DNA from: a virus
Lineage: Duplodnaviria; Heunggongvirae; Uroviricota; Caudoviricetes
Virus record (IMG/VR): IMGVR_UViG_2778261204_000006
Location: 1 to 38,045 of that record
Strand: one strand, 5' to 3'
DNA length: 38,045 nucleotides
Under the pieces are notes generated by a model. The model had not been told where the DNA came from. It worked only from the letters and a program-made list of their open reading frames with translations, and ran no database searches. Positions 1 through 36,987 of the stretch are shown piece after piece. The number at the start of each line of letters is the position of its first letter. Within the stretch, counting starts at the first letter, position 1. The position numbers were made by a program, and so were the translations under genes.

Positions 1-624
1 TTACCGACAAACTCGTCGTAGATCAACTCTGGCAATCTGTTCTGCAGGTATATAGGTTGCCAGAGTTCCCCATCCGTCATCTGCCACACCACTATCGCAT
101 TCTGTCCAGATATTGCTCCCGACTGTAGTCCGGTGCGTGACGTATAAGATTATATCTCCCTTATTACCTAACGTGACAGGACCGTTAGGCCGTCCTGCAA
201 ATCGCCCGGGGGCTCGTGAAAGTAAAACAGAGCCATCCTTAAGATATACATAGATTTCAGAAAAAGTGAAATCCATCTGATTGAACAATGACTGCCACGC
301 TGAATGAGTATCATCAGACCATGAGATGTTTTGCTTATGCAGAAATTCATACATCCATTTGCGACCGTATCTGCGCCACAACGCACCGTAAATAAAAGCG
401 CAAAGAAGCGCTGGTGGCGTTGCAAGCCACGAATTCAGACCTGCCCACATAACAGCCTGGTAAACCATCATTGACAGCAGGCCAAAAATCAGCGTCGTAA
501 ATGTCACCTCGATGGGCTTGTGATGGTCTTTCAGGCCCACGTTCGCAATAAAATAGCCGATGTATCCACTGGTCAGTGTCACCAGTGTTGCCCACGGCAG
601 ATTCAGCAGGGATGCATCAAACAT
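1..624 (-). CDS. hypothetical membrane protein (about 3 predicted TM helices plus about 120 aa soluble C-terminal domain); moron-like cargo
   Basis: ORF track 207 aa; strong RBS GGAGG 5 nt before ATG at 624; immediately preceded by an intrinsic terminator; hydrophobic N-terminal segments in translation. Confidence 0.55.
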   Translation of the reverse strand: MFDASLLNLPWATLVTLTSGYIGYFIANVGLKDHHKPIEVTFTTLIFGLLSMMVYQAVMWAGLNSWLATPPALLCAFIYGALWRRYGRKWMYEFLHKQNISWSDDTHSAWQSLFNQMDFTFSEIYVYLKDGSVLLSRAPGRFAGRPNGPVTLGNKGDIILYVTHRTTVGSNIWTECDSGVADDGWGTLATYIPAEQIARVDLRRVCR

Positions 625-653
625 ATTTCCTCCGGTGATATGTTTTTCTGCCA

Positions 654-691
654 GAATAAAAAAAGCGCAACAGGTTATCCATTGCGCTTTT
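654..691 (-). terminator. rho-independent terminator after the small gene downstream of mor
   Basis: Perfect 10-bp stem (661-670 pairs with 682-691), 11-nt loop, followed on the minus strand by a run of about 8 T. Confidence 0.5.
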
Positions 692-718
692 CATAAACCG
701 GGAATTTATTGACGCTCG

Positions 719-955
719 TTAACACTTTCGTGGCGGTGGTGGTGGGTTACGTAAAACTTTCCCGTAATACAAAACACACTTTTCATCAGGCCCGATATGC
801 AGACGTGAGTTGTCAATCAGTCGGTCGCACTCCCGGAGAACATATCTCGCCTCAGTTGAAGTCAGACCGTCAAAAAAATGCCGGATAATTTCCATCGCCA
901 TATCTGCATGGTCTGCCTTCTTCAGGGAGGCGCTGTTGGGGGTTTTATAGCGCAT
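719..955 (-). CDS. hypothetical small protein
   Basis: ORF 719..961; preferred start ATG at 955 with GAGGTG RBS; no recognisable family. Confidence 0.4.
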   Translation of the reverse strand: MRYKTPNSASLKKADHADMAMEIIRHFFDGLTSTEARYVLRECDRLIDNSRLHIGPDEKCVLYYGKVLRNPPPPPRKC

Positions 956-972
956 TATCACCTCGCTTTTGA

Positions 973-1359
973 TTAATCCCGGCTGTCATTCGGTTCATCA
1001 TCGTCTTCGAATAACTGCCCCTGCAACCGGCTGATTTCTTCCTTTCTTACGCGCTTTACCAGGTTGTAAATCCAGGGAACTGAAACCCTGAATCTGCGGG
1101 ACAGTTCGTGGTGGTTACGTCCGTTAAACGCCTCATAGATTTCACGGTCACGCTGGCTTATCTTCCATCTCATCCCCATAGGAAAATAAACGTTTTGCCC
1201 GCCCCAGACCTGCATCATGCGGTTCGCGACGGCCTGACCAATCTGGTCGGCAACTTCGGGCTCAATATCAATAATCTCGCGAACGGTCTCAGAGGTATGC
1301 TGTGCCAGTTCCACCAGGAGTTCCGGCCCCTTACTTCGAAACTGATTCAGGTCGCTCAT
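973..1359 (-). CDS. Mor/C-family transcriptional activator (phage middle/late gene activator)
   Basis: 128 aa; size and C-terminal HTH-like region fit the Mu Mor/C family; GGGAG RBS; located at the distal end of the early arm as in Mu. Confidence 0.65.
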   Translation of the reverse strand: MSDLNQFRSKGPELLVELAQHTSETVREIIDIEPEVADQIGQAVANRMMQVWGGQNVYFPMGMRWKISQRDREIYEAFNGRNHHELSRRFRVSVPWIYNLVKRVRKEEISRLQGQLFEDDDEPNDSRD

Positions 1360-1780
1360 GTTTGACTCCCGCAGCTCTGTGCTGCCACTTCTTCAGTTTC
1401 TCAATAACACTGCTTGCCTGTTCAGTACTGAGCCAGTGCAGGGCGCTGATGCCCGTTTCCCGCTTGATCCACCGCGCTAATGCATTTTCTGAACGGTCAC
1501 GAACAATGCCGGCAGCAGCCATTTCAAGCCATAGCGCACGAATTTTCCTGGACTGCGGATGGTCATCCAGCGGTAAACCGGAGCTGGCTTTTCTGGCAGG
1601 TTTAACCCGAAAGCCTTTCTTTTTCATGGATTCCAGCACGCAGTTTAGTTGTGTGGTATCCATTCCTTTGGTTGAGGCTTTACAGGTCAGCCCCTGTAAC
1701 ATCTGGCGGTAGGTGTCTTCATCCAGACCCAGTTCATTACGGGCAATATGGATAAGCTGAATCAGTCGTTTTTTCTGCAT
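1331..1780 (-). CDS. GemA-like protein (Mu gp16 family)
   Basis: 149 aa; N-terminus KRLIQLIHIARNELGLDEDTYRQML matches the recalled GemA/DUF1018 pattern; 3' end overlaps the mor start. Confidence 0.55.
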   Translation of the reverse strand: MQKKRLIQLIHIARNELGLDEDTYRQMLQGLTCKASTKGMDTTQLNCVLESMKKKGFRVKPARKASSGLPLDDHPQSRKIRALWLEMAAAGIVRDRSENALARWIKRETGISALHWLSTEQASSVIEKLKKWQHRAAGVKHERPESVSK

Positions 1781-1781
1781 A

Positions 1782-1985
1782 TCAACCCCGCTTTTTCAGT
1801 CTGCCGGCAGCAATGTCAGTTGCAGCTGGCAGGGTGACAGGCCAGAACAGCATGACAGCTGTCATATACAGGATGTAATTCGCGGTGTCATAATGGTTAC
1901 CGAAGCCCAGTGCATAATGAAGCCGGGCACTGCATAATCCTGCATATGTGTACCAGAAAAGAAAACAGGCAATAGTTTCAGCCAT
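1782..1985 (-). CDS. small hydrophobic protein
   Basis: ORF 1782..2006; likely start ATG 1985 overlapping the upstream stop by 8 nt (translational coupling). Confidence 0.4.
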   Translation of the reverse strand: MAETIACFLFWYTYAGLCSARLHYALGFGNHYDTANYILYMTAVMLFWPVTLPAATDIAAGRLKKRG

Positions 1986-2385
1986 TATATTTTTTCTCCA
2001 GTTCAATATTTTTCAGGTCATTTTCCGCAAAGAGGATTGCTGTTCTGGCACTCCGCAATCGTGCTTTTGCATTTTTCTCTTCACGTTCAAGGACTGCGAC
2101 AGATTCACGAAGTGCTTCCAGCTTTTTATGAAGACGTTTAATTTCATGTACGATATTTTCAGCATTACGGGCACGCTCAAGGATAAATTCAAATGGATCC
2201 AGTACAGACCCGCACAGTGAACAGGTCAGCGTCCGGTTGATTTCAGAGACTGTTGTCCGGGTATGCCGGCACTGGTTTTGTTCGTTATTCTTCCGTTCAG
2301 AAATAACCACATTCAGCAGTTTTTGGGCTTCTGCATCAGGATCTGGCTGAAGCAGATGAATAATGTTATCGCTGTCGTTATCCAT
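1978..2385 (-). CDS. hypothetical protein with Cys/His cluster and coiled-coil C-terminus
   Basis: ORF 1978..2484; start ATG 2385 overlaps the upstream stop (ATGGATAA); Cys/His cluster followed by charged helical region. Confidence 0.45.
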   Translation of the reverse strand: MDNDSDNIIHLLQPDPDAEAQKLLNVVISERKNNEQNQCRHTRTTVSEINRTLTCSLCGSVLDPFEFILERARNAENIVHEIKRLHKKLEALRESVAVLEREEKNAKARLRSARTAILFAENDLKNIELEKKYNG

Positions 2386-3067
2386 TATCCGCCTCCAGTT
2401 TCTGTTGTTCCTGCCCACTGACCGGGCGGTGCAGTCTGACGTTCTGCCCTTCTCGAAACCCCGCATAGCGCGAGGCGTCGCCATTGCGACTTCTTCCCGG
2501 TTTACGCGCCCTGGTGGTTTGCGTCTGCGGGTATTTATGTTCCAGCCACTGCTGCATCAGTTCACGCTCGTCATCGGTCAGGGCAAAAGCCTGTATTTCA
2601 CTGATAACGGCCAGCACCCAGCCTTCGGCAAACTGGTCGCCACGGCTGGTGCGGGTGGCGGTTTTTATTCTTTTGTTCTGTGCACTGACATACTGCTGAC
2701 GCGCCTTTTTCAGCTGGCGGGCCAGCACTTCCCAGGTATATGCAGCCAGTGCCGCACGTTCCCGGTTGCCGTAGAACCCCACACCCGGATGCGTGCCGGG
2801 GTGAATGATGGAGTTAACACCAGATGCCTCACGGATGATGTTCATCAGGCCCAGCATGTAGCGCGGCGGACGGAGGCTGCCTGTCGGCCAGTAGTGGCTG
2901 ATGGTTTCATCAATATCACTCATGGCTATGTCGGAATGTGTAATGCCGTGAACATCCATCAGTTTACGGGCACGGCGCAGTGCCAGAGCGGCCTCGTGCG
3001 GGTTGCCGGATGCGGCCAGCGCCAGCAACTTTTTCAGTTTCTCAATGTGTTTATTCTGGTCTGTCAT
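2378..3067 (-). CDS. DUF2786-like phage early protein
   Basis: 229 aa; N-terminus KLLALAASGNPHEAALALRRARKLM typical of DUF2786 (recalled); ATGA overlap with the upstream gene. Confidence 0.5.
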   Translation of the reverse strand: MTDQNKHIEKLKKLLALAASGNPHEAALALRRARKLMDVHGITHSDIAMSDIDETISHYWPTGSLRPPRYMLGLMNIIREASGVNSIIHPGTHPGVGFYGNRERAALAAYTWEVLARQLKKARQQYVSAQNKRIKTATRTSRGDQFAEGWVLAVISEIQAFALTDDERELMQQWLEHKYPQTQTTRARKPGRSRNGDASRYAGFREGQNVRLHRPVSGQEQQKLEADNG

Positions 3068-3279
3068 TGTTCAGTATCTCCGGTATTTTTTTGCTGTTCC
3101 CATGCCCGAACAGCGTCGGACAGTTCTTTCAGGCTGTATGCTGCTTTAAGCTTTTCCCATAGCCACTGTGTTGTTATGTGTATCAGCAGGGCAGCCAGGG
3201 CTGCCCCCGCACTGAGGCATGTCGCCAGGCCAGTAAGAATCAGTGTCCATGCGGTGATTTCCCTGAGTATGTCAGCCAC
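3064..3279 (-). CDS. small membrane protein
   Basis: 71 aa, GTG start with GGGAGG RBS 6 nt upstream; one hydrophobic helix. Confidence 0.45.
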   Translation of the reverse strand: MADILREITAWTLILTGLATCLSAGAALAALLIHITTQWLWEKLKAAYSLKELSDAVRAWEQQKNTGDTEQ

Positions 3280-3293
3280 TGAATGCCTCCCGG

Positions 3294-3590
3294 TTACTCG
3301 TTCGTGTAAATCACGCCCAGTCGTGCAGCCAGACGTTCCAGTTTTTTCTGTTTGTGGAAGTCAATCAGCCGGTCCATCCCCTGAAGGCGCAACTGCTCTG
3401 TCATGATTTCCACATCTGCCAGCTCTGCCGCGAGGTCACTTTCGCTGCCCTGTCCGTTCAGGTTGCGGGCGGCACTGGCCGCCAGTTCAGCGGCCTCTTC
3501 TGTCAGTTTCAGGGCCTGTGCATCCGGCCCGAAACGCTGCAGGGCCAGACGATAGAGGTCGGTGCGGGTGAGTATGGTGTTCCGTGTCAT
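3294..3590 (-). CDS. hypothetical early protein
   Basis: 98 aa; GAGGG RBS; within the operon-like leftward gene string. Confidence 0.45.
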   Translation of the reverse strand: MTRNTILTRTDLYRLALQRFGPDAQALKLTEEAAELAASAARNLNGQGSESDLAAELADVEIMTEQLRLQGMDRLIDFHKQKKLERLAARLGVIYTNE

Positions 3591-3599
3591 GCCGCGCCC

Positions 3600-3872
3600 T
3601 CAGTGCTTCCGGTCGACGGTGATGTTCAGGTTGCCTTCTGCAGTGGTTTCCATCCGGTACGGCACCTCATGCTTTGCCGTGTGGGTGAGTGTGTTCACCA
3701 GTACCTGCAGGGCAGCCTCCTTTCCGTTGGTCGCCACAATGGCCTGAGCGGCCATGCTGATTAGCGCTGTCAGGACGTGCTTCACATCGGTGAGGTCGCG
3801 GCATTCACACTCGTTGACATAGTGTTCAACAAGGGTTCGGGTGCGCTGTCGTGCTTCCTGTGGGGTAATCAT
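3600..3872 (-). CDS. hypothetical early protein
   Basis: 90 aa; tightly packed with flanking genes. Confidence 0.45.
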   Translation of the reverse strand: MITPQEARQRTRTLVEHYVNECECRDLTDVKHVLTALISMAAQAIVATNGKEAALQVLVNTLTHTAKHEVPYRMETTAEGNLNITVDRKH

Positions 3873-4063
3873 TGCGCGTCCTCCCTGTCAGGGCGGGAGA
3901 ATTCCATGACGGGCACGTCTGCCGAAAAATGCTGGCTGCAGTACGGGCAGACCAGGGTGACGCGTACCGCAGGTATGTGGTACTTACCGGACATCACGGC
4001 GATGGCGCTGTGAAAACGCAGGGCTGTTATATCCCTCTCGCACTGAATACATTTAAATATCAT
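3869..4063 (-). CDS. small zinc-ribbon-like protein
   Basis: 64 aa with CxxC...CPYC cysteine pairs; GAGGAG RBS. Confidence 0.45.
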   Translation of the reverse strand: MIFKCIQCERDITALRFHSAIAVMSGKYHIPAVRVTLVCPYCSQHFSADVPVMEFSRPDREDAQ

Positions 4064-4160
4064 GATTTAATTCTCCTCTGTTTCCGGCGTGCAGAAGCCC
4101 ACGGCGCTGACGCCGGAATAAAAAAGAAAATGTTTTTATTAAATAATTAACGTGGTGTGT

Positions 4161-4691
4161 TTACTGCACATCCTGCTCAAAAGGAATTATTGAAAAATCC
4201 TCAATATCACTTTTTATGGTAATACCGGGAATATTTTTCACGGCGTCTTTTTCATTCAGGATGGCGTCTTTATTTATTTCCTCTTTTACACGAATAAATC
4301 GCTCAAGCCCCAGACGTCTCAGTAGCTCAATAACATTATCCGCCCCGCGAATGCTGACTGACGGTGGACGGTTTCTCCACTGTACCTCGCCGGTGGTGAG
4401 GTTAGCGAACTTCACCTTCCCGTTGCCGGTCAGTTCATCACGGTGTGCCTCACACCATGTCTGGATACCGGACTGCAGTTCTGACATGCGTTTTTTCAGG
4501 CTCTCGGTGAGCGGGGCATAACGTGCGGTGATATCGCCAATGGCGTCATTCATTTCTGTTTCAGCCCTGACCAGTTCACGTTGTGCGTCACCGAGCAGTC
4601 TGATTCCCTCAATGACCTCTTCGCGTGTTCCTGGTACCCAGAGTGCCGCTGCGGACTTGATACGTTTTGCCCCTTTTGTACTTTTTGCCAT
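4161..4691 (-). CDS. Gam-like host-nuclease inhibitor protein
   Basis: About 176 aa from ATG 4691; size and position downstream of the B-like ATPase match Mu Gam; family assignment from recalled similarity. Confidence 0.6.
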   Translation of the reverse strand: MAKSTKGAKRIKSAAALWVPGTREEVIEGIRLLGDAQRELVRAETEMNDAIGDITARYAPLTESLKKRMSELQSGIQTWCEAHRDELTGNGKVKFANLTTGEVQWRNRPPSVSIRGADNVIELLRRLGLERFIRVKEEINKDAILNEKDAVKNIPGITIKSDIEDFSIIPFEQDVQ

Positions 4692-4716
4692 ATTATGATT
4701 TCTCCGGTTGTGCTGA

Positions 4717-4986
4717 TTACCACAAAGATTCCGGCCACACGACGCGACAGCCGTGCAGTTCGAAAACGCCCTGACGGAAATGTCCCCTGTGGTCATGACC
4801 GGTATACAGATAACTGGCTTTCCCCTGTTCAAGCATGCGCATGCAATGCGCACTCCGGGAAACGCGGATGACAGGTTTATTGCCCCTGATGGTGATGCTT
4901 TGTACATCCGTGTTCGTCGCCATAAGCGCCATAATGGCTGACTGCACTTTGCTGATTTGCTGGTTGATACCTGTGATGGATTTCAT
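4717..4986 (-). CDS. hypothetical early protein
   Basis: 89 aa; ATG 2 nt after the stop of the B-like gene. Confidence 0.45.
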   Translation of the reverse strand: MKSITGINQQISKVQSAIMALMATNTDVQSITIRGNKPVIRVSRSAHCMRMLEQGKASYLYTGHDHRGHFRQGVFELHGCRVVWPESLW

Positions 4987-4988
4987 TC

Positions 4989-6155
4989 TTAAACCCCTTT
5001 GACAACGTCAGCGTTGACCTGTGGAACACCGATTTCAGCAGCCAGATTCATGGCGGCTATCACCAGGTTACTGACGGCCAGCGGATACAGCAGGCTGACC
5101 CTGTTTTTACGGTGACTTCCCGGATTGCTCAGGCGGGCACGTATGGCATCCACTGCGCCGGCGTCCATAATGTCCGTCAGTTGTTTACCGGCCCGTTGCA
5201 GTTTGAACGTCAGAAACTCTTCAAGGTTATTGTCCAGAGGCAGAAGTTCGACCACCTCACAGCGCTGAACGACTTCACGGACTTCCATATTGCGTTCAGA
5301 CAGTTTTGTCGCCAGTTCCGGCTGGCCAATCAGCACGATGGACAGCAGTTTTTTGAAACCGGACTCCAGCTCAAAAAAGCGTTTGAGGTGTTTCAGTGTC
5401 GGAATAGGCAGACTGTGGGCCTCCTCAATCACCAGAACGTGGCTGAACCCCGCCTGGCTGCTGTCTTTCAGGACGCGATGCAACTGGCGAAAGCGGGCGT
5501 CCTGACTGCGTCTGATGCTTTCCAGTGGTGCGATGGTACTGATAATGGCTTCGGCAATCGCTGCTGCCTTCAGGGTTTTCCCTTTCACATCGTTGTCTTC
5601 CATGGCGATGACGTATGGCTCGATAACAATCACCGGCGCATTCTCGCGGTTGATACGTTCAGTCAGGTCGCGGCGCAGCGTGGATTTACCCGCACCGGAC
5701 TCACCGATGACGGCCATAAACCCGCCATGACGGGCTGTCTGGTACAGCGCCTCACGCACGTAGCGAATGTCCGGGGTGGTGAACACATCATCAGAACCCT
5801 GCATGGCTTCGTCGGCGAACGGGTCACGGAAAAGACCAAACGCTTTTTTGGTTGCTGGAAATAACACCTGTTTTTTGAGTAACATATTCTCTTCCTCACT
5901 GAGGCTCGTTTTATCTGTGGTACCCGCTGTACGGGGCGTGGCCGCGCCCTGTACAGCATCAAAACTCTTCGTTGTATCAATCCCCTGACTTTCCAGCCAG
6001 GACGCAAGACGCCGGCGCACTTCTCCGGGGCGGGTGCGGGGCCACGCGTTATGATTCACAATCTGGGCCAGCGTGGCCTCAGAAACATCGACAGCTCTCG
6101 CCACCACCGCCTGTGGAATACGGGCCTCTTTCAGTTGCTGCTTCAGTACCAGCAT
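4989..6155 (-). CDS. transposition ATPase (Mu B-like AAA+ target-DNA activator)
   Basis: Walker A GESGAGKST in translation; N-terminal HTH-like region; ATG 6155 with GGAGGG RBS 10 nt after the transposase stop. Confidence 0.75.
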   Translation of the reverse strand: MLVLKQQLKEARIPQAVVARAVDVSEATLAQIVNHNAWPRTRPGEVRRRLASWLESQGIDTTKSFDAVQGAATPRTAGTTDKTSLSEEENMLLKKQVLFPATKKAFGLFRDPFADEAMQGSDDVFTTPDIRYVREALYQTARHGGFMAVIGESGAGKSTLRRDLTERINRENAPVIVIEPYVIAMEDNDVKGKTLKAAAIAEAIISTIAPLESIRRSQDARFRQLHRVLKDSSQAGFSHVLVIEEAHSLPIPTLKHLKRFFELESGFKKLLSIVLIGQPELATKLSERNMEVREVVQRCEVVELLPLDNNLEEFLTFKLQRAGKQLTDIMDAGAVDAIRARLSNPGSHRKNRVSLLYPLAVSNLVIAAMNLAAEIGVPQVNADVVKGV

Positions 6156-6165
6156 GTTTCCCTCC

Positions 6166-7935: not shown

Positions 7936-7950
7936 AGCTTGTCTTCCCTG

Positions 7951-9185: not shown

Positions 9186-9195
9186 TGATTACTCC

Positions 9196-9504: not shown

Positions 9505-9556
9505 CTGCATACCTATTTTTCAATATGTGATAATCTTTTTCGTATGCTGTATCTTT

Positions 9557-26055: not shown

Positions 26056-26062
26056 AATCTCC

Positions 26063-29978: not shown

Positions 29979-30190
29979 TGTTTCTTGAACATATTACCCG
30001 TGACGGAGAGCGCTGGGATTCGCTGGCATGGCAGTACTACGGTGACCCGCTGGGCTATCCCCGGATTATTGCAGCCAATCCGCACGTGGCCATCACGCCG
30101 GTGCTGCCCTCCGGGCTGTTGTTACTGATTCCGGTTATCGAGGCTGAAGAAGCCAGTACAGAAGAGGATATTGCCCCATGGCTGAGATAA
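29978..30190 (+). CDS. tail protein X-like
   Basis: 70 aa; RWDSLAWQYYGD segment resembles P2 gpX; GAGGAG RBS. Confidence 0.6.
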   Translation: MFLEHITRDGERWDSLAWQYYGDPLGYPRIIAANPHVAITPVLPSGLLLLIPVIEAEEASTEEDIAPWLR

Positions 30191-31347
30191 ACAGCACTGC
30201 ACAAGCCGCATCAGCGTTAACCGGCGTCAGCGATGTTCTGAGTCCGGTGTTCACGCTGTGGTATCTGCAGAAGAACATCACCACCGATATCGCCCCCTAT
30301 GTCACCCGCGTAACCTACAGCGATAACATCAAAAGCGAGTCCGATACCATTGAGGTGGAACTGGACGACACCGATGGCCGCTGGCTGGATAAGTGGTATC
30401 CGGGCAAGGGTGACACGCTGACGCTGAAAATGGGTTATCAGGGCGAGAAGCTGCTGTCCTGCGGTACGTTCTCTATAGACGAGATCGAGGTGAGTTCGCC
30501 CGCGTCCGTTGTCGCTATCCGGGGCGTGGCCACGTCGGTCAACAACGCCCTGCGGACAAAATCCAGTCGTGGTTTCGAGAGCACCACGCTGGCGGCCATC
30601 GCCGGACGGATTGCCAAAAAGCATCAGCTGAAGCTGGTTGGCAGTATTGAGTCCATCAAAATTGACCGGGTGACCCAGTATGCTGAAACGGACGTGGGCT
30701 TCCTGCGCCGACTGGCCAGCGAGTATGGTTATGCCGTGAAAGTGGTCAGCGACCAGCTGGTTTTTTCTCATCTTGCCACGTTGCGCGGTCAGGAGCCGGT
30801 CAGGCAGTTAAAGCCGCAGGATGTGGCCAGCTTTTCCCTGCGTGACACCATCAACCGCGTCTACAAATCCGCGAAGGTAAAACACCAGAAGAGCAGCGAT
30901 AAAAAGCTGATCGTTTATGAAGCTGATGGCGGTACCAGCGAAAGCGACAAACAAACCAAAGGCGGTAAGGTCACCAGTGCCGACTCACTGAAGGTCAACA
31001 GCCGCGTCAGTGACCCGGACAGCGCCCGGATTAAAGCAGATTCGGCGCTGGCCAGGCATAACGAATACCAGCAGAACGGCTCCCTGACGCTGATGGGGAC
31101 GCCCCAGTTGACTGCAGGCAACAAAATTGAACTGGTGGGCTTTGGTCAGTTATCCGGGCCATGGCTGATAACCACTGCCCGCCATGCGTTTGATCGTAAC
31201 AGCGGCTACATCACCGAACTGGAAGTGGCACGAGGGCCGGTCACGCAGGGCAAGGCGAAGAAAGGTAAAAAGACTGGCAAAACCCAGACGCTGACCGTCT
31301 ATCAACCGGACGGCAGTACGTCCACGGTAATAAAGGAGAAGAAATAA
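30178..31347 (+). CDS. tail/baseplate hub protein (P2 gpD / Mu P-like)
   Basis: 389 aa; ETDVGFLRRLA segment typical of gpD family. Confidence 0.8.
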   Translation: MAEINSTAQAASALTGVSDVLSPVFTLWYLQKNITTDIAPYVTRVTYSDNIKSESDTIEVELDDTDGRWLDKWYPGKGDTLTLKMGYQGEKLLSCGTFSIDEIEVSSPASVVAIRGVATSVNNALRTKSSRGFESTTLAAIAGRIAKKHQLKLVGSIESIKIDRVTQYAETDVGFLRRLASEYGYAVKVVSDQLVFSHLATLRGQEPVRQLKPQDVASFSLRDTINRVYKSAKVKHQKSSDKKLIVYEADGGTSESDKQTKGGKVTSADSLKVNSRVSDPDSARIKADSALARHNEYQQNGSLTLMGTPQLTAGNKIELVGFGQLSGPWLITTARHAFDRNSGYITELEVARGPVTQGKAKKGKKTGKTQTLTVYQPDGSTSTVIKEKK

Positions 31348-31859
31348 TGGCAGGCGTCACCCGTCAGGTCGGTACGGTCAGCGCCGTCGATGCCGACAAG
31401 GTACAGGCCCGTGTTCGTTTGCCGGAATGCGATAACCTGCGCACTAACTGGCTTAACGTGCTGCAGCGCAATACCCAGGATAACAAGGATTACTGGCTCC
31501 CTGACGTGGGGGAGCAGGTTGAGGTGCTGCTCGATGCCAACGGCGAGGATGGCGTCATTCTGGGCGCGGTGTACTCAGAAGTCGATAAACCGCCGTTCAG
31601 CGACAAAAATGTCCGGGGCACAAAATACGCTGATGGTGCTGAGTTCAGCTATAACCGCGCGACCCATACGCTGACGGTTAAAGGCGGTATCGAGCATGTG
31701 GTGATCGAGGTTGCGGTGGGTATCAACCTGAAGGGGAAAACTATTGATTTGACCGCTGACACCACCACGGTGAACGGCGACCTTGAAATCAACGGCAATG
31801 CCCACTCGACAGGCAGCATGCTCTCTGACGGCCAGAACTCCAATCATCACTCCCACTGA
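31347..31859 (+). CDS. baseplate spike protein (gpV-like)
   Basis: 170 aa; AAGGAGA RBS. Confidence 0.8.
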   Translation: MAGVTRQVGTVSAVDADKVQARVRLPECDNLRTNWLNVLQRNTQDNKDYWLPDVGEQVEVLLDANGEDGVILGAVYSEVDKPPFSDKNVRGTKYADGAEFSYNRATHTLTVKGGIEHVVIEVAVGINLKGKTIDLTADTTTVNGDLEINGNAHSTGSMLSDGQNSNHHSH

Positions 31860-31873
31860 CCTTCTTAAACGCC

Positions 31874-31912
31874 TTTAATATCGGCGTTCCCGCACAGGGG
31901 CAATACTGCCCC
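31874..31912 (+). promoter_or_regulatory. candidate internal late promoter upstream of the baseplate W gene
   Basis: CCTTTAATATCG at 31872 and ACTGCCC at 31905, 32 bp apart. Confidence 0.35.
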
Positions 31913-31913
31913 C

Positions 31914-32261
31914 ATGAAAACAACCTCAGTATTCTGGCAACCGGCTCTGCAGGCCCCCGGCGAAATCGTCCGGGGGCTGGATGATATCTGGCAGGCTATT
32001 CAAATCATCCTGCGTACTCCTCGCGGCAGCGACCCGCATCGCCCGGAGTTCGGCAGCAATCTGCACCTTTATATCGACTGGCCTATTGACCGGGCCATTC
32101 CGCATGTGGTGCGCGAATCCGTCGATGCCATCCGCAGCTGGGAGCCTCGCTGCCAGCTTATGTCGGTCAAACCCGCCGTCGACGGCGAACATCTTACGCT
32201 CCGGGTGAGCTGGAAAGGCTCTGACGGACAGCCCCGGACTCAGGAGTTGCTATGGCGCTGA
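31914..32261 (+). CDS. baseplate protein W (GPW/gp25 family)
   Basis: 115 aa; IILRTPRGSDPHRPEFGSNLHLYIDWP motif. Confidence 0.8.
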   Translation: MKTTSVFWQPALQAPGEIVRGLDDIWQAIQIILRTPRGSDPHRPEFGSNLHLYIDWPIDRAIPHVVRESVDAIRSWEPRCQLMSVKPAVDGEHLTLRVSWKGSDGQPRTQELLWR

Positions 32262-33355
32262 CAGAACCCGATTTTATTGAACGTGATGCCGACAAAATCA
32301 CGGCTGAAATGATTGCTCAGTACGAAGCCGCAACCGGCAAGACGCTGTACCCCGCTCAGGCTGAGCGCCTGTTGATTGACCTGTGGGCATACCGCGAAAT
32401 GCTGGTCAGGGTAGCGGCGCAGGAAGCGGCCAAACAGAATCTGGTCGCCTTTGCCCGTGAGCCGATGATTGATTACCTCGGTGAACTGGTCGGTGTATAT
32501 CGCCTGGCCGCACAGCCTGCCACCACCACGCTCCAGTTCTCCGTGGATGAGGCACTGGCCATTGACGTGCTGATTCCGGCGGGTACCCGCGTCAGTGCTT
32601 CCGACAGCATCATTTTTGCCACCGACACGGACGTGGTGTTAAAGGCCGGATTGCTGCTGGTCAATACCACGGCCACCTGTACCGAGCCGGGGGCCGCTGG
32701 CAACGGCTGGCAGCCTGCACAGGTCAGTCAGTTGCTCGATGAAATTGATAACGTCGACCTGCAGGTGACCAATCTGGCGGCCAGTTCTGGCGGTTCAGAG
32801 CAGGAAGACAATGACAGGCTCCGCGAGCGTATCAAGCTGGCCCCGGAGTCATTCACCAACGCCGGAAGCCGTATGGCATACCGCTTTCATGCCATGCAGG
32901 CCCATCCCAACATCGTCGATGTTGCGGTGCTTTCCCCGGTTCCCGGCACCGTAGAACTGTATCCGCTGCTCAGCACCGGCCTGCCGGACGACAGCATCCT
33001 CACGCTGGTAGAGAGTTTCTGCTCGGACGAAAAAGTCAGGCCGCTCACTGATACCGTGCGGGCTAAAACACCTGTGCAGGTGGATTACGCCATTGAGGCC
33101 AACATCACTATCTATCGTGATCAGGATGCCAACTCGATAAAGGACAGCGCCAACAGCGCCATACAGAACTGGGTGGCGTCCCGTACCGCCACGCTGGGGC
33201 GCGATATTGTCCCCAGCCAGATTATCAGCGTTCTGTCCGTTACCGGGGTCTATCAGGTCGAACTGGTGACACCGGTGCTGAAGGTGGTGGCAGAAAACGA
33301 ATGGGCAAACTGTACGGCGATCACTCTTAACATGACCGGGGTGTCCGATGGCTGA
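32252..33355 (+). CDS. baseplate protein J
   Basis: 367 aa; follows W as in P2/Mu baseplate modules. Confidence 0.8.
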   Translation: MALTEPDFIERDADKITAEMIAQYEAATGKTLYPAQAERLLIDLWAYREMLVRVAAQEAAKQNLVAFAREPMIDYLGELVGVYRLAAQPATTTLQFSVDEALAIDVLIPAGTRVSASDSIIFATDTDVVLKAGLLLVNTTATCTEPGAAGNGWQPAQVSQLLDEIDNVDLQVTNLAASSGGSEQEDNDRLRERIKLAPESFTNAGSRMAYRFHAMQAHPNIVDVAVLSPVPGTVELYPLLSTGLPDDSILTLVESFCSDEKVRPLTDTVRAKTPVQVDYAIEANITIYRDQDANSIKDSANSAIQNWVASRTATLGRDIVPSQIISVLSVTGVYQVELVTPVLKVVAENEWANCTAITLNMTGVSDG

Positions 33356-33926
33356 GCCGTTACAACTTCCGCCACCGCTTGAGGGTGATATCAGCCTCAG
33401 AACGCTGGGAAGACTGGCCGGGCGGCTGGATAACATCGACCTGAGCGTACTGATGGTCTATCTCGTCGATATTGTCGACAGTTCCGCGCTGCCATGGCTG
33501 GGCGAGCAGTGCTCGCTGTTCGGCGATGGCTGGGAGTTGGCGGAGTCGGACGATGTACGCCGCATGCTTATCAAATCCGCTATCGAGCTGCACCGCTACA
33601 AAGGGACGCCGTGGTCAATCCGGGAAATCATCCGCCGTTTCGGCTTTGGCGAAGTGGATCTGATTGAAGGCACTGGCCAGATCGGCTACGACGGCAAACA
33701 CACTTACAACGGGCTTTTCGTCCATGGCGATGCAGAAGCCTGGGCGGTCTATCGCGTCATTCTTCAACAGCCCATCACTAACGATCAGGCCGCGTTGTTA
33801 CGCCAGACGCTCGCTGCTTTTGCTCCGGCCCGCTGCCATCTGGCGAGCCTTGAGTATCAGTCTGTCGCCATTCGCTACAACAACACCGTCAACTACGACG
33901 GCAGCTATAACCACGGGAGCAGTTAA
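33348..33926 (+). CDS. tail protein I-like (baseplate)
   Basis: 192 aa; follows J. Confidence 0.7.
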   Translation: MAEPLQLPPPLEGDISLRTLGRLAGRLDNIDLSVLMVYLVDIVDSSALPWLGEQCSLFGDGWELAESDDVRRMLIKSAIELHRYKGTPWSIREIIRRFGFGEVDLIEGTGQIGYDGKHTYNGLFVHGDAEAWAVYRVILQQPITNDQAALLRQTLAAFAPARCHLASLEYQSVAIRYNNTVNYDGSYNHGSS

Positions 33927-33928: not shown

Positions 33929-34771
33929 ATGGCAAACCTACCTGAAACCCCGCAGTGGGAAGACGGCATCTATCAGATTGAGGTCTCTGACCCCGTTCTG
34001 GGCGGGCCTGACGGGATTTCTAACCGCCAGGGTAAACAACTGGCCAGCCGCACGCTGTACCTGAAACAACAGGTTGAGAAAGGCGGTACAGACCTTGCGA
34101 AACACATCGCGGCAGCAGACCCGCATACACAGTACGCACCGAAAGCCAGCCCGACATTCACCGGCACGCCAACAGCGCCCACGCCTGCAAATAGCGATAA
34201 CAGCAAGAAGCTGGCGACGACGGAGTTTGTGGCCAAAGCACTTGCGGCGCTTGCAGGCAGCGCCCCTGAAACGCTGGATACGCTTAAAGAGCTGGCGGAT
34301 GCCCTCGGTAACGATCCGAATTTTGCGACCACGGTGCTTAACAAACTGGCGGAGAAGCTGGCCAAAGACCAGAACGGCGCAGATATTCCTGACCCGGCGC
34401 TCTTTGTCAAAAACCTTGGTTTAGGGGAATCGGCGAAAATGCCTGCTGCGACAGCATTGGCCAGCAGTGCTGGTAACATCGCTATTCCAGTATTAATTGG
34501 TGGAGTACAACGAACAGCACTGCTTCAGTGGAAGATGGTATCAGTGCCGCAATCAGCAGACGGTAACATGGTAGTGGTTGACGACTCATGGCCGGTTGCC
34601 TTTCCTAATGCTTGCCTTTCCATCAATCCTTCGCTGTCCAGTTCTTTGATTTACGCGACCAGTGGAGCACCTTTTGTCAGCGCAGCGATTGTTGACCGGG
34701 TCAAATTCAAAGCCGCTTGCGCATACACGAAATCTAATTCAACAGTAACAGTATGGGGAGTGGGATATTAA
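33929..34771 (+). CDS. tail fibre protein (constant N-terminus plus currently expressed variable C-terminus)
   Basis: 280 aa; crossover repeat lies in frame at codons KNLGLGE; C-terminal part inside invertible segment. Confidence 0.75.
   Translation: MANLPETPQWEDGIYQIEVSDPVLGGPDGISNRQGKQLASRTLYLKQQVEKGGTDLAKHIAAADPHTQYAPKASPTFTGTPTAPTPANSDNSKKLATTEFVAKALAALAGSAPETLDTLKELADALGNDPNFATTVLNKLAEKLAKDQNGADIPDPALFVKNLGLGESAKMPAATALASSAGNIAIPVLIGGVQRTALLQWKMVSVPQSADGNMVVVDDSWPVAFPNACLSINPSLSSSLIYATSGAPFVSAAIVDRVKFKAACAYTKSNSTVTVWGVGY
34408..34429. repeat. left inverted repeat (gix/hix-like recombination site) CAAAAACCTTGGTTTAGGGGAA
   Basis: 22-bp perfect match to the reverse complement of 36241..36262. 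Confidence 0.75.
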
Positions 34772-35214
34772 TGACAGACTATGTATTCAGCCCGGCTGAA
34801 AATGCTTTTTATCTTGTGGCACTGAAAGACGATTATTTATCTGCTGGCACATGGCCGTCAGACGGCATCAATATAGATGCTGAAGATGCGCTAGTTTTCA
34901 TGGGGGTGCCTCCCGAAGGTAAAGTGCGTGGCATTGGTGATGATGGGTTGCCTTGCTGGGCTGATCTTCCGCCACCTACGCATGAAGAACAACTCGCAGC
35001 GGCTGACTCAGAAAAGCAGTCGAGAATTGACCAGGCCAACGATTATATGAATGGTAAGCAGTGGCCTGGCAAAGCAGCAATCGGGCGACTGAAAGGTGAC
35101 GAACTGGCTCAGTATAATTTGTGGCTTGATTATTTGGATGCGCTGGAAGCGGTTGATACTGCCAGCGCGCCAAATATCAATTGGCCTACACCTCCGGTCG
35201 GGCAGGCCAGCTAA
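34771..35214 (+). CDS. tail fibre assembly protein (Tfa/U-like)
   Basis: About 147 aa from ATG 34771 (TAATG overlap with fibre stop); conserved Tfa C-terminal pattern. Confidence 0.75.
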   Translation: MTDYVFSPAENAFYLVALKDDYLSAGTWPSDGINIDAEDALVFMGVPPEGKVRGIGDDGLPCWADLPPPTHEEQLAAADSEKQSRIDQANDYMNGKQWPGKAAIGRLKGDELAQYNLWLDYLDALEAVDTASAPNINWPTPPVGQAS

Positions 35215-35788
35215 CATCAGGAGCCGTCGAAACATCGACGGCTTTAACTGCAGTTTTATAAGCCATCCACGATGACAGTTTCTTTTTGCTTTCTTCGCTG
35301 ATATCACCGAGCATCAGCTCTACCCGCCAATCCGAGGTAAGATCATCTACCTGAGCGAGGAGCGTTTGTCGGTGTTGTTCTGCATCAGCAATATCACCTT
35401 GATGTTTTGCAGCAGAATCCGTGACCCATTTATCTCCGTCCCATTTATCATACGGTGATGCTGGAGCTGTGGGGGTTGTACCTTCGGGATAATCTCCCAG
35501 TGCCGTCACTACAACCTGTTGCATTGTCTCAATGTTATAAACGGTTTGACCTCTGTGATCGGTTATATATTCCCATGATGAAAGGTCTGCTGTACGGCAA
35601 ATGGCAAAACCCTCATTATTTTCACCTGGAGCATCAATGCAAGAATTGGCAGGAATACCAACCCCCACGGCGAGATACTCAACGGTTGAAGACAGATATT
35701 CAAGCGTCTCACCATCGAAGTTATAGACGGTGATTTCCCCTGCAACTATAGCGATCATGTCCTGGTTTAATTCAGCTTTAGCCATCAT
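35186..35788 (-). CDS. alternative tail fibre assembly protein (Tfa', inverted orientation)
   Basis: 200 aa; C-terminus VDVSTAPDVSWPARPEV parallels the plus-strand Tfa C-terminus. Confidence 0.7.
   Translation of the reverse strand: MMAKAELNQDMIAIVAGEITVYNFDGETLEYLSSTVEYLAVGVGIPANSCIDAPGENNEGFAICRTADLSSWEYITDHRGQTVYNIETMQQVVVTALGDYPEGTTPTAPASPYDKWDGDKWVTDSAAKHQGDIADAEQHRQTLLAQVDDLTSDWRVELMLGDISEESKKKLSSWMAYKTAVKAVDVSTAPDVSWPARPEV
35223..35250 (+). terminator. hairpin terminator candidate at the convergence point inside the invertible segment
   Basis: GCCGTCG-aaacat-CGACGGC 7-bp stem followed by TTTAACTGCAGTTTTAT. Confidence 0.35.
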
Positions 35789-36262
35789 GCAGCCCTCACA
35801 ATGTAGTTAAATGCAATATTCCGCGCACGGGTTTCTGTCGCTGTTCGTACTGAGCGGGAGGCATCAAACGTCCAGTTTGCAGCACCATATCCACCATCAG
35901 TGGACGGAGTTAAACCTAAGGATAAAAGCATTCCATCCTGACGGAATGGGCCGGAGTAAACGGTATCCTTGAAAAGCTGAGTGCGACCAAACGAACCGAC
36001 AATGTTCTGGATGGAGTCTGACTGAGCAGACAATAGGCTACGCCCCGTATCAACTCCGCGCCCGTCATCCCATCCACGGATAAACTCCCCGCGTAGATCA
36101 GGCAGTCTGAGCGCCGGATAGGCCAGTGCCAGCTTAGGGTACTGGGAGGCGGTAAACGCAGCCCCATTGCATTTGAGCCACCCTGTTGGTGGTGTCGCTG
36201 ACGGCCATGGAATGGGCACGCCAACCGGCAATGCAGAGCCTTCCCCTAAACCAAGGTTTTTG
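35785..36262 (-). CDS. alternative tail fibre C-terminal segment (Sv'-like), promoterless until inversion
   Basis: Reading frame through the right repeat encodes KNLGLGE as in the plus-strand fibre, then a distinct C-terminal domain (PDLRGEFIRGWDDGRGVD). Confidence 0.65.
36241..36262. repeat. right inverted repeat (gix/hix-like recombination site)
   Basis: TTCCCCTAAACCAAGGTTTTTG, reverse complement of 34408..34429. Confidence 0.75.
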
Positions 36263-36328
36263 GAAAAGCGGTTACACATAGCGAAATCTGTAAAAATCCT
36301 CCCGCCGCGACATAGAGGAGGAGAATTG

Positions 36329-36910
36329 ATGGCCGTCATTGGTTATATCCGTGTATCAACAATCGACCAGAACAGCGATTTACAGCGTAATGCACTCACA
36401 AGCGCAAACTGTGACCGCATTTTTGAAGACCGCATGAGCGGAAAAGTTGCCAGCCGCCCCGGTCTGAAACGCGCTTTAAAGTGCGTTAATAGCGGAGACA
36501 CCCTGGTCGTGTGGAAACTGGACAGGCTGGGGCGCAGCGTTAAGAACCTGATCGCACTGATATCAGAGTTACATGAACGCGGTGCCCACTTCCGCTCTTT
36601 AACAGACAGTATTGATACCAGCACAGCCATGGGGCGTTTCTTTTTCCATGTGATGTCGGCACTGGCGGAGATGGAACGTGAACTGATCGTCGAACGAACA
36701 CTGGCCGGGCTGGCAGCGGCCAGAGCACAGGGACGCATAGGTGGAAGGCCCAACGCATTAAAGCCGCATGAGCAGGAACAGATTGGGCGGCTATTGGCTA
36801 AGGGGCATACCCGCCAGCAGCTGGCCATTATCTACGGGGTGGGGTTATCTACACTCTACCGGTATTTTCCGGTAGATGGTCAGAGGAAGGATGACGCGAT
36901 AGGATTGTAA
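36329..36910 (+). CDS. serine recombinase DNA invertase (Gin/Hin/Pin/Cin family)
   Basis: 193 aa; N-terminus YIRVSTIDQNSDLQRNAL with catalytic Ser; TLVVWKLDRLGRS and C-terminal HTH; GAGGAGGAG RBS. Confidence 0.9.
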   Translation: MAVIGYIRVSTIDQNSDLQRNALTSANCDRIFEDRMSGKVASRPGLKRALKCVNSGDTLVVWKLDRLGRSVKNLIALISELHERGAHFRSLTDSIDTSTAMGRFFFHVMSALAEMERELIVERTLAGLAAARAQGRIGGRPNALKPHEQEQIGRLLAKGHTRQQLAIIYGVGLSTLYRYFPVDGQRKDDAIGL

Positions 36911-36944
36911 TTCTTTTGCAAATATTGAAACGCCGCAGCGGTGC

Positions 36945-36987
36945 CATTTATCTCACGGAATGGGCGCATTTATCGCGCGGCGCATCA
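36945..36987. repeat. prophage right terminus with two CATTTATC motifs 22 bp apart (candidate transposase-binding sites)
   Basis: Motifs at 36945-36952 and 36967-36974; element ends ...GCGCATCA at about 36987. Confidence 0.5.

Follow-up and report, generated by a model that had tools for sequence, protein, structure and literature searches.

Gene Content and Organization

The window analyzed here, a stretch of 38,045 nucleotides, carries two gene arms that point away from each other (Table 1). Minus-strand ORFs run unbroken from 9745 down to 719, passing from an HTH gene through three small genes to the transposase, an ATPase, Gam, GemA and Mor, in the places and directions given in a preliminary description of this DNA. 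Plus-strand late genes extend from the holin, whose ATG lies at 12719, where the same description had the late genes begin, to the tail fibre. Between the arms lie, also as described, a repressor-like gene (9827-10180) and a 2.4-kb accessory island (10297-12588).

The first gene of the early operon, at the Ner/Cro position, encodes an HTH protein without a match to Mu Ner. As had been proposed, exactly three ORFs separate it from the transposase. The DUF3102 gene in the middle of the three is conserved immediately upstream of the transposase gene in the phages compared, and no PDB relative of its product was found; the acidic protein next to the transposase has a 35% partial match in Ralstonia phage YO107_2. 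The transposase, which has no match to Mu A, belongs to the Tn552/B3/BcepMu lineage and not to that of MuA, and the ATPase, with no match among Mu proteins, is B-like in role but an ExeA/GspA-type AAA+ protein rather than a MuB homologue. The names Ner, A and B used in the preliminary description hold by position but not by homology, as no homologue of Mu Ner, A, B or c was detected in the window. Gam has no match among BcepMu proteins or in the early-arm stretch of B3 that was compared (16 kb). The run of seven small ORFs, which includes a protein 33% identical to B3 ORF5 (2378-3067), corresponds by position to the semi-essential early region of Mu.

The mor gene is the second-to-last of the operon, and the window contains no second Mor/C-family copy. 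The last ORF (719-961) gave no family match in domain and PHROG searches. The hairpin beyond it is probably the end of the leftward operon, and past this terminator lies a cargo gene whose product has no Pfam, NCBIfam or PADLOC match. In the accessory island, the ORFs match PHROGs 4490, 2266 and 3787, none with an assigned function, and the methylase is the only PADLOC match; BcepMu has unrelated genes (gp18-20) at this place.

Table 1. Features of the window, with positions, strands and supporting matches (percentages are protein identities).
Feature	Position	Strand	Evidence or remark
Left-end cargo gene, 207 aa, hydrophobic N-terminal part	1-624	-	PHROG 12870
Terminator-like hairpin	660-692	-	14-bp stem, then T run
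Small ORF, 78-80 aa, downstream of mor	719-961	-	annotated in CFS3292; called in L016 and L018
Mor/C-family late activator	973-1359	-	Pfam Mor 5e-41; 51% BcepMu gp01, 42% Mu C, 29% Mu Mor
GemA (Mu gp16) homologue	1331-1780	-	Pfam GemA 1e-38; 44% BcepMu gp02
Seven small early ORFs	1782-4063	-	include DUF2786/DUF7168 protein, 2378-3067
Mu-type Gam (host-nuclease inhibitor)	4161-4691	-	Pfam Phage_Mu_Gam 1e-40; 63% Mu Gam
89-aa ORF between ATPase and Gam	4717-4986	-	ORF call
Transposition ATPase	4989-6155	-	Pfam AAA_22 3e-20; 59% BcepMu gp08, 55% B3 ORF11
DDE transposase	6166-7935	-	Pfam rve; 68% BcepMu gp09, 56% B3 A
Acidic protein, 105 aa	7951-8268	-	PHROG 5446; position of BcepMu gp11
DUF3102 protein, 305 aa	8268-9185	-	Pfam DUF3102; 44% BcepMu gp10, 48% B3 ORF13
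Winged-helix (HTH_IclR-like) DNA-binding protein, 104 aa	9196-9510	-	Pfam HTH_IclR, PHROG 1368; 34% BcepMu gp12, 56% B3 ORF14
HTH protein, 62 aa, BcepMu gp16 family	9557-9745	-	TIGR04111 BcepMu_gp16, 95.5 bits (cutoff 34); 48% gp16, 71% B3 ORF17
Candidate early promoter Pe	9798-9833	-	-35 TGGACA 9833-9828; -10 TAAATT 9811-9806
Candidate operator, 18-bp palindrome TGTCTAAAAATTTAGACA	9798-9815		overlaps Pe; unique in window
Candidate repressor, 117 aa, N-terminal HTH	9827-10180	+	weak Phage_CI_repr/AlpA HTH matches; transcribed away from early operon
Terminator-like hairpin after repressor gene	10266-10290	+	11-bp stem
Accessory island	10297-12588	mixed	four ORFs
D12-class Dam methylase	10297-11061	-	Pfam MethyltransfD12 1e-28
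71-aa ORF	11251-11466	-	island
134-aa ORF	11465-11869	+	island
247-aa protein, Walker-A motif	11845-12588	-	island
Late-promoter motif 1, TAACGCGCTTTAAAAT	12652-12667	+	51 nt upstream of holin ATG; same site in BcepMu and YO107_2
Lysis cassette: holin, SLT-type endolysin, Rz-like spanin	12719-14437	+	52%, 63%, 32% to BcepMu gp21, gp22, gp23
Packaging and head: TerS, TerL, portal, F, G, protease/scaffold, major head protein, adaptors	14434-23803	+	45-62% to BcepMu gp25-gp38
Late-promoter motif 2	20137-20152	+	gap between G-like and protease genes; also in BcepMu and YO107_2
P2-type contractile tail and baseplate: sheath, tube, chaperones, tape measure, U, X, D, V, W, J, I equivalents	23793-33926	+	
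Late-promoter motif 3	26055-26070	+	upstream of tail-chaperone gene at 26124; near-match at same place in BcepMu
Late-promoter motif 4	31866-31881	+	upstream of gpW-like baseplate gene at 31914; BcepMu one mismatch, YO107_2 exact
Tail-fibre gene	33929-34771	+	constant part to 34402; in-frame variable part within invertible segment
G-type invertible segment	34402-36268		gix-like 28-nt inverted repeats 34402-34429 and 36241-36268, core AAACCAAGGTTT
Gin-type serine invertase, 193 aa	36329-36910	+	71% Mu Gin; Pfam Resolvase and HTH_7
Right end	36945-36987	+	14-nt repeats CATTTATCTCACGG at 36945 and CATTTATCGCGCGG at 36967; terminal ...GCGCATCA
Host sbmA	36988-38045	-	first 1058 nt of 1221, interrupted by insertion; 100% identical to the sbmA of many E. 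coli genomes

Insertion in sbmA

At the right junction, ...GCGCATCA is followed directly by GTCATCaggccg. The right end at 36987 is exactly where the preliminary description had drawn it, and the sbmA match starts at 36988, but the left end lies 366 bp beyond position 1, where it had placed the other boundary. This true left end, starting TGATCAGACATGAGATAAATG..., was seen in the L018 assembly, which has 0 mismatches to window positions 1-3624 and whose left junction joins ...aatctgcGTCATC to TGATCAGACATG, and at nine other loci. The empty sbmA site in strain EC11 is aatctgcGTCATCaggccg. The sequence GTCATC after the right end (36988-36993) is a target-site duplication, and in L018 the same 6 bp join the left end to the rest of sbmA. 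The element has TG...CA ends and a length of 37,353 bp. Mu duplicates 5 bp at its target; this element duplicates 6 bp. A 6-bp duplication is typical of B3/Tn552-type transposases (PMC8705779). Relatives carry the 14-nt repeats of the right end in inverted form at their left end as well; these repeats are candidate transposase-binding sites. Almost certainly, the window contains a transposable myovirus prophage in E. coli sbmA that is of the BcepMu/B3 architectural type and complete except for its leftmost 366 bp.

The identical 6-bp duplication of sbmA sequence at the two junctions shows that this is a single element. The preliminary description had allowed that the left part could be an assembly inversion or a separate element, and it is extremely improbable that the divergent layout arose as an artefact, with the left 10-12 kb inverted in assembly or a separate Mu-like transposition module lying beside a P2-like prophage. 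Such a reading draws on the a priori oddity of the layout relative to Mu and on tail genes that are P2-like next to early genes that are Mu-like in function. However, the duplication flanks the whole unit on both sides, the unit has matching inverted terminal repeats at its two outer ends and nowhere else, and an independent complete genome contains a prophage of the same architecture, that of CFS3292 (37,287 bp), with its own duplication, ATGCAT. The independently sequenced BcepMu, B3 and YO107_2 share the arrangement as well. An inverted or separate left arm is already refuted by the junction data, and a joint mis-assembly of L018 and the window is ruled out by the independent genomes.

Comparison With Known Phages

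Prophages of this kind, Mu-like and of the BcepMu/B3 type, have been described before, and two opposed arms are the usual layout of the group. The preliminary description had suggested such a layout for BcepMu-type phages; this is correct according to the gene strands of BcepMu (NC_005882), in which genes 1-13, 15 and 16 lie on the bottom strand and gp17 onward on the top, and to the literature (Summer et al., 2004, summarized in PMC2771037). B3 organization, too, typically has opposed arms with one to three regulatory genes between them (PMC8705779). In the whole-genome synteny comparison that had been proposed, window and BcepMu proved collinear in every gene shared and in its strand, and 35 of the 51 BcepMu proteins have homologues in the window in matching order and strand; the corresponding count for Mu is 12 of 54.

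On the bottom strand of BcepMu, Mor lies far left, followed by the B-like ATPase, the transposase, gp10-13 and the gp16 HTH gene. The window likewise has Mor far left with GemA adjoining, a Tn552-type rve transposase (68%) and an ExeA-like ATPase (59%), homologues of gp10, gp12 and gp16 between the transposase and the control region, and the control region at the interface of the opposed clusters. Both late arms open with holin, SLT endolysin and Rz, continue with packaging and head genes like those of Mu and a contractile tail like that of P2, and carry the late-promoter motif at the same four positions; both elements have TG...CA ends. Tail and baseplate proteins range from 77% (sheath) down to 31% identity to BcepMu gp39-gp51, in identical order. 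Nucleotide similarity to BcepMu is, however, only about 23%. The Mu-type Gam, the Gin/G invertible fibre segment, the Dam island and the left-end cargo gene occur in the window and not in BcepMu, whereas BcepMu gp03-07, gp13-15, gp17-20 and the gp53 acyltransferase are absent from the window.

The layout is the same over the first 16 kb of Pseudomonas phage B3 (AF232233). With B3 compared over this stretch, it is nevertheless very unlikely that the element is better classed with the B3-like phages than with BcepMu. This filing could appeal to the identical layout and to three early proteins that are closer to B3 than to BcepMu (HTH, 71% vs. 48%; winged-helix, 56% vs. 34%; DUF3102, 48% vs. 44%), but the transposase (68% vs. 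56%) and ATPase (59% vs. 55%) are closer to BcepMu, and the whole contractile-tail cassette is of the BcepMu/P2 type. B3 is a siphovirus, and its TerL is only 28% identical, compared with 62% for that of BcepMu.

Like Mu (NC_000929), the BcepMu-type element in the window is a transposable temperate myovirus with homologous Gam (63%), GemA, Mor/C, TerL (49%), portal, F (47%), G and Gin (71%) and a G-type inversion of the tail-fibre tip. Unlike it, Mu has its early, middle and late genes all in one direction from the left end, two activators (Mor, then C) and tail genes that are not P2-like. The TG...CA ends are shared with Mu (PMC2771037).

The same lineage and gene order are found in Escherichia phage PhiKM (PQ738613; ~94% nucleotide identity), the Klebsiella phage KP12 clone KP12_2 contig (OM835952; about 85-91%), the CFS3292 prophage (~95%) and Phi06_2974 B. 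The window differs from its close relatives (PhiKM, the KP12 contig, Phi06_2974 B and prophages of E. coli genomes such as CFS3292) in insertion site and in a divergent middle part of the tape measure, and from CFS3292 also in the immunity module (operator and repressor N-terminus) and G-segment orientation.

Control Region and Probable Late Promoters

Pe is the only minus-strand promoter-like site within positions 1-9900. The adjacent gene is a candidate for the repressor by its position, its weak HTH match and covariation in one phage pair; it has no homology to BcepMu gp17 or B3 ORF18. The C-terminal 61 aa of its product are 85% identical to the CFS3292 protein, whereas the DNA-binding N-terminal half shows no relation to it, and where the window has the candidate operator CFS3292 carries another perfect palindrome. 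The repressor N-terminal half and the palindrome vary together between the window and CFS3292.

In the late arm, four conserved motifs with the consensus TAA-N6-TTAAWAK probably mark Mor-dependent late promoters. The consensus occurs in the window only at these four intergenic sites and once inside gin; the window and BcepMu were the sequences from which it was picked out by eye, so that its enrichment figure is circular and YO107_2 is the only independent test. In that phage the motif is confined to sites upstream of the holin, protease and gpW homologues. We infer that Mor binds the motif; Mu Mor and C reportedly bind farther upstream of the promoter than its position here.

Tail-Fibre Inversion and Proposed Phage Cycle

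The N-terminal 143 aa of the tail fibre are 53% identical to BcepMu gp52. The invertible segment that follows comprises two alternative fibre C-termini and two fibre-assembly genes (34753-35214, plus strand; 35186-35788 and 35785-36268, minus strand), with Caudo_TAP and Collar domains (Pfam); the crossover peptide KNLGLGE is common to the in-frame and the alternative C-terminus. In CFS3292 the segment lies in the opposite orientation while both flanks remain collinear. BcepMu lacks a tail-fibre inversion system (PMC2771037; PMC2628397).

These features suggest how the phage could work. In the lysogen, the 117-aa repressor would bind the palindrome over the early-promoter -10 (about 9806-9833) and keep the 9-kb leftward operon silent. 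Upon induction the operon would be transcribed, the transposase and ATPase would replicate the genome by transposition, and Gam would guard DNA ends. Mor would be made late because its gene is distal in the operon, and could then act in trans on the four rightward promoters (12652, 20137, 26055 and 31866) to turn on the lysis, head, tail and baseplate genes, a two-tier cascade unlike the Mor-then-C cascade of Mu. Gin may flip the 1.87-kb segment to switch the tail-fibre tip and thereby alter host range.

It is unlikely, though less so than the alternatives above, that this element of BcepMu layout is a defective remnant that cannot be induced. Cryptic prophages are numerous in E. coli, the phage records nearest to it (PhiKM and the KP12 clone) are partial, and this copy is known from its sequence. 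On the other hand, all BcepMu-homologous genes are full length, both ends are intact, the G segment occurs in both orientations, and PhiKM was deposited as a phage. The left end is identical at ten loci, each of which has its own host flank, and copies at ten or more sites differ by only 0-57 mismatches in 3.6 kb. Such near-identity at different sites implies that the lineage has probably transposed recently. Related prophages occupy many different sites among E. coli genomes, including malZ, dpiA, ygfM and the interior of another prophage, and the Mor/GemA end is matched in 639 of 5,426 complete E. coli genomes.

Gene Organization of the Prophage

ORF calling and family searches (Pfam, NCBIfam and PHROG) over the window resolved a minus-strand string that runs unbroken from 9745 to 719 and a plus-strand string whose first gene, a holin, has its ATG at 12719. 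Between the two arms, three ORFs without assigned function lie beside an HTH gene and a Dam methylase gene (see table). The late arm carries, in order, the holin, an SLT endolysin, an Rz-like gene, TerS, TerL, portal, F, G, protease/scaffold and major head protein genes, followed by sheath, tube, tape measure and baseplate genes and, last, a tail fibre gene at 33929. The positions 9745, 12719 and 36987, assigned in the preliminary description to the starts of the two arms and the right limit of the prophage, all proved correct when set against the ORF map, the holin ATG and the start of the sbmA match.

Features of the early operon, the control region and the late arm (window coordinates)
Feature	Length	Position	Strand	Remark
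HTH protein	62 aa	9557-9745	-	TIGR04111 'BcepMu gp16 family', 95.5 bits
Winged-helix protein	104 aa	9196-9510	-	
DUF3102 protein	305 aa	8268-9185	-	
105-aa protein	105 aa	7951-8268	-	
Transposase	589 aa	6166-7935	-	rve core (Pfam)
ATPase		4989-6155	-	AAA_22
89-aa ORF	89 aa		-	between ATPase and Gam
Gam		4161-4691	-	
Seven small ORFs			-	between Gam and GemA
GemA		1331-1780	-	
Mor		973-1359	-	
80-aa ORF	80 aa		-	last in string, after Mor (string ends at 719)
HTH gene	117 aa	9827-10180	+	between arms
Dam methylase		10297-11061	-	between arms
Late motif		12652	+	upstream of holin
Late motif		20137	+	upstream of protease
Late motif		26055	+	upstream of tail chaperone
Late motif		31866	+	upstream of gpW

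Rfam and tRNA scans of the window gave no matches. The SLT endolysin (13066-13797) has a hydrophobic start, MNWPQITLIILFAFALGVTAI, and this N-terminal stretch suggests an enzyme of the signal-anchor-release type. The middle of the tape-measure gene (26936-28095) does not align with the related prophage of the complete E. coli genome CFS3292 or with the KP12 relatives, and is the only large late-arm block besides the fibre tips of which this is true.

Relationship to BcepMu and Mu

The opposed arrangement of the arms is real and was rightly interpreted; it is textbook for a phage group that has been described before. The preliminary description had suggested that BcepMu-type phages share it, and this is borne out. 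In the annotation of BcepMu (NC_005882), the bottom strand carries genes 1-13, 15 and 16 and the top strand everything from gp17 on, and Lavigne et al. (2009; PMC2771037) describe BcepMu-like phages as having two clusters, with lysogeny control at genes 16 and 17 followed by a lysis cassette and morphogenesis genes, as well as a Tn552-IS1604-type transposase and terminal CA repeats. The prophage agrees with that account (PMC2771037) in its Tn552/IS1604 rve transposase, which is unrelated to MuA, its gene clusters on opposite strands, its TG...CA ends and its lysis, Mu-like head and P2-order tail cassettes. In the control region, the gp16-type HTH gene faces a divergent HTH gene that is not homologous to gp17; its covariation with the operator favours an equivalent role.

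Comparison gene by gene matched 35 of the 51 BcepMu proteins, all in identical order and on the identical strand. Protein identities to BcepMu were 68% for the transposase (over 581 aa, gp09), 59% for the ATPase, 51% for Mor, 62% for TerL, 60% for the portal, 77% for the sheath (gp39) and 67% for the tube (gp40), and the homologues of gp21-gp51 follow one another as a lysis cassette, Mu-like packaging and head genes and a P2-like tail. Unlike BcepMu, for which two papers report an inversion system to be absent (PMC2771037, PMC2628397), the prophage has a Mu-type inversion system, as well as a Mu-type Gam (63% identical to Mu Gam). It also differs in its central island (Dam and three ORFs, versus gp18-20 in BcepMu), in two ORFs left of Mor that have no BcepMu counterpart and in lacking the gp53 acyltransferase.

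In Mu, transcription of every gene but c proceeds in a single direction from the left end. Of the 54 Mu proteins, only 12 were matched in the window; Gam, GemA, Mor, C, TerL (49% identical to Mu gp28), portal, F, G and Gin have homologues there, and the fibre proteins S, S' and U' were matched over short stretches only. Protein comparison detected no homologue of Mu c, Ner, A or B (Mup01-04) in the window, and this absence, together with the opposed arms, sets the prophage apart from Muvirus. The names Ner-like, A and B used for the early genes therefore hold as roles but not as ancestry, and annotation should treat them as Mu analogues rather than homologues.

The lineage is already represented among sequenced phages, and E. 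coli genomes carry it in abundance. Escherichia phage PhiKM, filed as Bcepmuvirus in GenBank, is approximately 94% identical over the shared part, the Klebsiella phage KP12 clone 2 contig and Phi06_2974 B are approximately 85-91% identical, and the Mor/GemA end is matched in 639 of 5,426 complete E. coli genomes. BcepMu was not among the megablast matches of the window, and a rough blastn estimate puts its similarity at approximately 23% identical bases per genome length. In ICTV practice, the threshold for a genus is about 70% genome-wide nucleotide similarity. The prophage is BcepMu-like in architecture and proteome and would fall short of the 70% threshold for Bcepmuvirus. The layout, a published hallmark of BcepMu/B3-type transposable phages, is of little consequence for discovery.

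Ends of the Element and Its Mobility

The right end is exact: the phage finishes ...GCGCATCA at 36987, with a CA dinucleotide at 36986-36987, and the match to sbmA begins at 36988. The left end was read outside the window. A look-up by protein sequence retrieved ten contigs that carry the exact 207-aa product of window 1-624, among them the contig L018 (GCA_002468025.1, NMNK01000003.1), with 0 mismatches to window 1-3624. Its left junction reads ...ggtaatctgcGTCATC|TGATCAGACATGAGATAAATG..., with TG at the phage end, and is followed by the remainder of sbmA and then yaiW; in strain EC11, the uninterrupted sbmA reads ...aatctgcGTCATCaggccg.... The right junction, the L018 left junction and the EC11 empty site together define an element of 37,353 bp with TG...CA ends and a 6-bp duplication, GTCATC, on both sides. 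The first position of the window, taken in the preliminary description as the left boundary, is consequently not the prophage end, which lies 366 bp further left. A second possibility, that the left arm is an assembly inversion or a separate element, is excluded since the same 6-bp duplication flanks the whole element. The exact ends, size and target duplication are the gain for annotation.

The stretch 1-1035 had no match in the phage collection by sensitive blastn and is missing from deposited phage records. It is prophage DNA and not host DNA, given that the same stretch adjoins Mor in other E. coli prophages. The CFS3292 prophage, from an independent complete genome, has the same architecture, is collinear with the window at approximately 95% identity, and lies between malZ and proY as an element of 37,287 bp flanked by the duplication ATGCAT. 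The target duplication is thus 6 bp in both prophages, compared with 5 bp in Mu. Two 14-nt repeats (CATTTATCTCACGG-like) near the right end both recur inverted near the left end and are candidate transposase-binding sites. Two database records are unreliable as a reference for the ends: the KP12 clone 2 record (OM835952) holds a contig of a BcepMu-like transposable phage although it is classed with Vequintavirinae, and the PhiKM record (PQ738613) is partial and permuted, starting at TerS, with the tail fibre joined to the Mor end and no gin.

At ten loci with the 207-aa gene, the left end is identical and its distance to the gene constant, and the host flank is different in each. Further copies lie at malZ (CFS3292) and, in three other complete genomes, downstream of dpiA, beside ygfM and within another prophage; counted together, near-identical copies occupy about 15 different insertion sites. 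This pattern is what transposition would predict, and provides indirect evidence for it.

In the present host, sbmA is split after nucleotide 1058 of 1221 (window 36988-38045; L018 3980-4159), leaving a product of 352 native residues with a 13-residue tail encoded by the phage. Strains that lose SbmA become resistant to microcins B17 and J25, to bleomycin and to proline-rich antimicrobial peptides. At the level of the strain, the interruption should reduce uptake of these agents, and the lysogen may show the resistance.

Early Control and Immunity

The sole promoter-like site on the minus strand within 1-9900 is TGGACA-16-TAAATT at 9833-9806, and its -10 element overlaps an 18-bp palindrome, TGTCTAAAAATTTAGACA, unique in the window. 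At the same position, CFS3292 carries a different perfect palindrome, TGCTCATAATTATGAGCA. The divergent 117/118-aa proteins of the two prophages are unrelated in their N-terminal HTH halves and 85% identical over their C-terminal 61 residues. Joint replacement of an operator and a DNA-binding domain reads as the signature of an immunity module, and it supports the assignment of the divergent gene as the putative repressor and of TGTCTAAAAATTTAGACA as its operator. The early leftward promoter would then be located at 9833-9806, under the control of the 117-aa repressor at the overlapping palindrome. The swapped region spans window 9798-10013 and L006 10740-10973 (CFS3292), where the palindrome has been exchanged along with the first 56 residues of the repressor candidate; across the swap, the gene at the Ner position and the C-terminal half of the repressor candidate remain 85-95% identical.

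Late Control

Mor is the only Mor/C-family gene in the window and should be made last, since its gene sits close to the far end of the early operon of 9 kb. A common motif, TAA-N6-TTAAWAK, is found in four intergenic regions of the late arm; towards its 3' side it looks like a -10 hexamer, and it is accompanied by no -35 element. In BcepMu, the four corresponding positions (L004 11486, 18813, 24533, 30775) also carry the motif, two exact and two near. Ralstonia phage YO107_2 played no part in deriving the motif; its exact matches are confined to sites directly ahead of the holin, protease and gpW homologues (L007 25357, 18105, 5342, minus strand, which is the late strand). Three BcepMu-like phages of different hosts share the motif, and it is not present in the Mu late promoters. 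At each site, a short leader hairpin follows by the start codon and takes in the ribosome-binding region; its support is modest, with z-scores of -1.5 to -2.9. The four sites are probably Mor-dependent late promoters, and the cascade would accordingly depend on one activator in two tiers, versus three in Mu. Together with the covariation of operator and repressor, the motif offers a directly testable handle on regulation in a little-studied group of E. coli phages. A fifth exact copy, also found in the KP12 contig, lies inside gin (36477-36492, plus strand), and could be either a chance occurrence or an internal promoter.

The Genes Between the HTH Gene and the Transposase

Three genes separate the HTH gene from the transposase, as the preliminary description stated. 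It called them uncharacterised, yet they form a conserved part of the operon, because counterparts exist in BcepMu, Pseudomonas phage B3 and YO107_2. The DUF3102 protein is 44% identical to BcepMu gp10 and 48% to B3 ORF13, the winged-helix protein 34% to BcepMu gp12 and 56% to B3 ORF14, and a partial match to the 105-aa protein was found in YO107_2. B3 has the same opposed-arm layout, with four ORFs between the HTH gene and the transposase; it differs as a siphovirus with a non-contractile tail, whereas sheath and tube genes are present in the window.

When window 7951-9745 was compared with B3 (AF232233, 7341-9904) and BcepMu (6485-9098), the HTH protein, like the other two early proteins, was nearer to B3 (71% versus 48%), whereas the adjacent transposase was closer to BcepMu (68%) than to B3 A (56%). 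By these identities, the element reads as a mosaic, with early control genes nearer to B3 and with the transposase and the compared structural genes (B3 tail excluded) nearer to BcepMu.

Structural searches were uninformative: against PDB sequences, the transposase, the ATPase, the DUF3102 protein and a profile built from six DUF3102 sequences gave chance-level matches only, and the DUF3102 protein, modelled with AlphaFold from its single sequence, yielded an unusable prediction (mean pLDDT 41.6). The 207-, 105-, 134- and 247-aa proteins had no NCBIfam or Pfam match.

The block of winged-helix, DUF3102 and small acidic proteins is conserved in the BcepMu- and B3-type phages compared, in which the operator lies approximately 10 kb from the left end. 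The Mu operator lies approximately 1 kb from the left end, and MuA carries the operator/enhancer-binding role in its own N-terminal domain. We regard as unlikely the proposal that the block is a dedicated module for transposition or its control, which could, for example, supply operator or enhancer binding in trans and, with a one-step Mor regulon of four TAA-N6-TTAAWAK promoters, would constitute a regulatory logic distinct from that of Mu.

Fibre Inversion and Accessory Genes

The Gin protein (36329-36910) shares 71% identity with that of Mu. A segment of 1.87 kb (34402-36268) has 28-nt gix-like inverted repeats at its two ends and contains a pair of alternative fibre tips together with two genes for assembly. 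It evidently flips in nature, because its orientation in CFS3292 (L006 35264-36611) is opposite to that in the window and the flanks are collinear.

The product of the 207-aa gene (1-624) is a predicted membrane protein assigned to PHROG 12870. Between the gene and the early operon lies a strong terminator-like hairpin (692-660), so that the gene looks like independently expressed cargo. Genes for lysogenic conversion or exclusion are typically found at such a place, between the early-operon terminator and the left end. In many other E. coli copies, the position is taken by an alternative allele, a 214-aa annotated ORF that matches the window only from 308.

Beside Dam, the island 11251-12588 encodes on mixed strands a 247-aa protein with the Walker-A motif GPVGSGKS and two small ORFs, all in PHROG families of unknown function. 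PADLOC, applied to the island and left-end cargo proteins, returned the methylase only. The 247-aa protein and the two small ORFs may constitute a small exclusion or toxin-antitoxin-like module.
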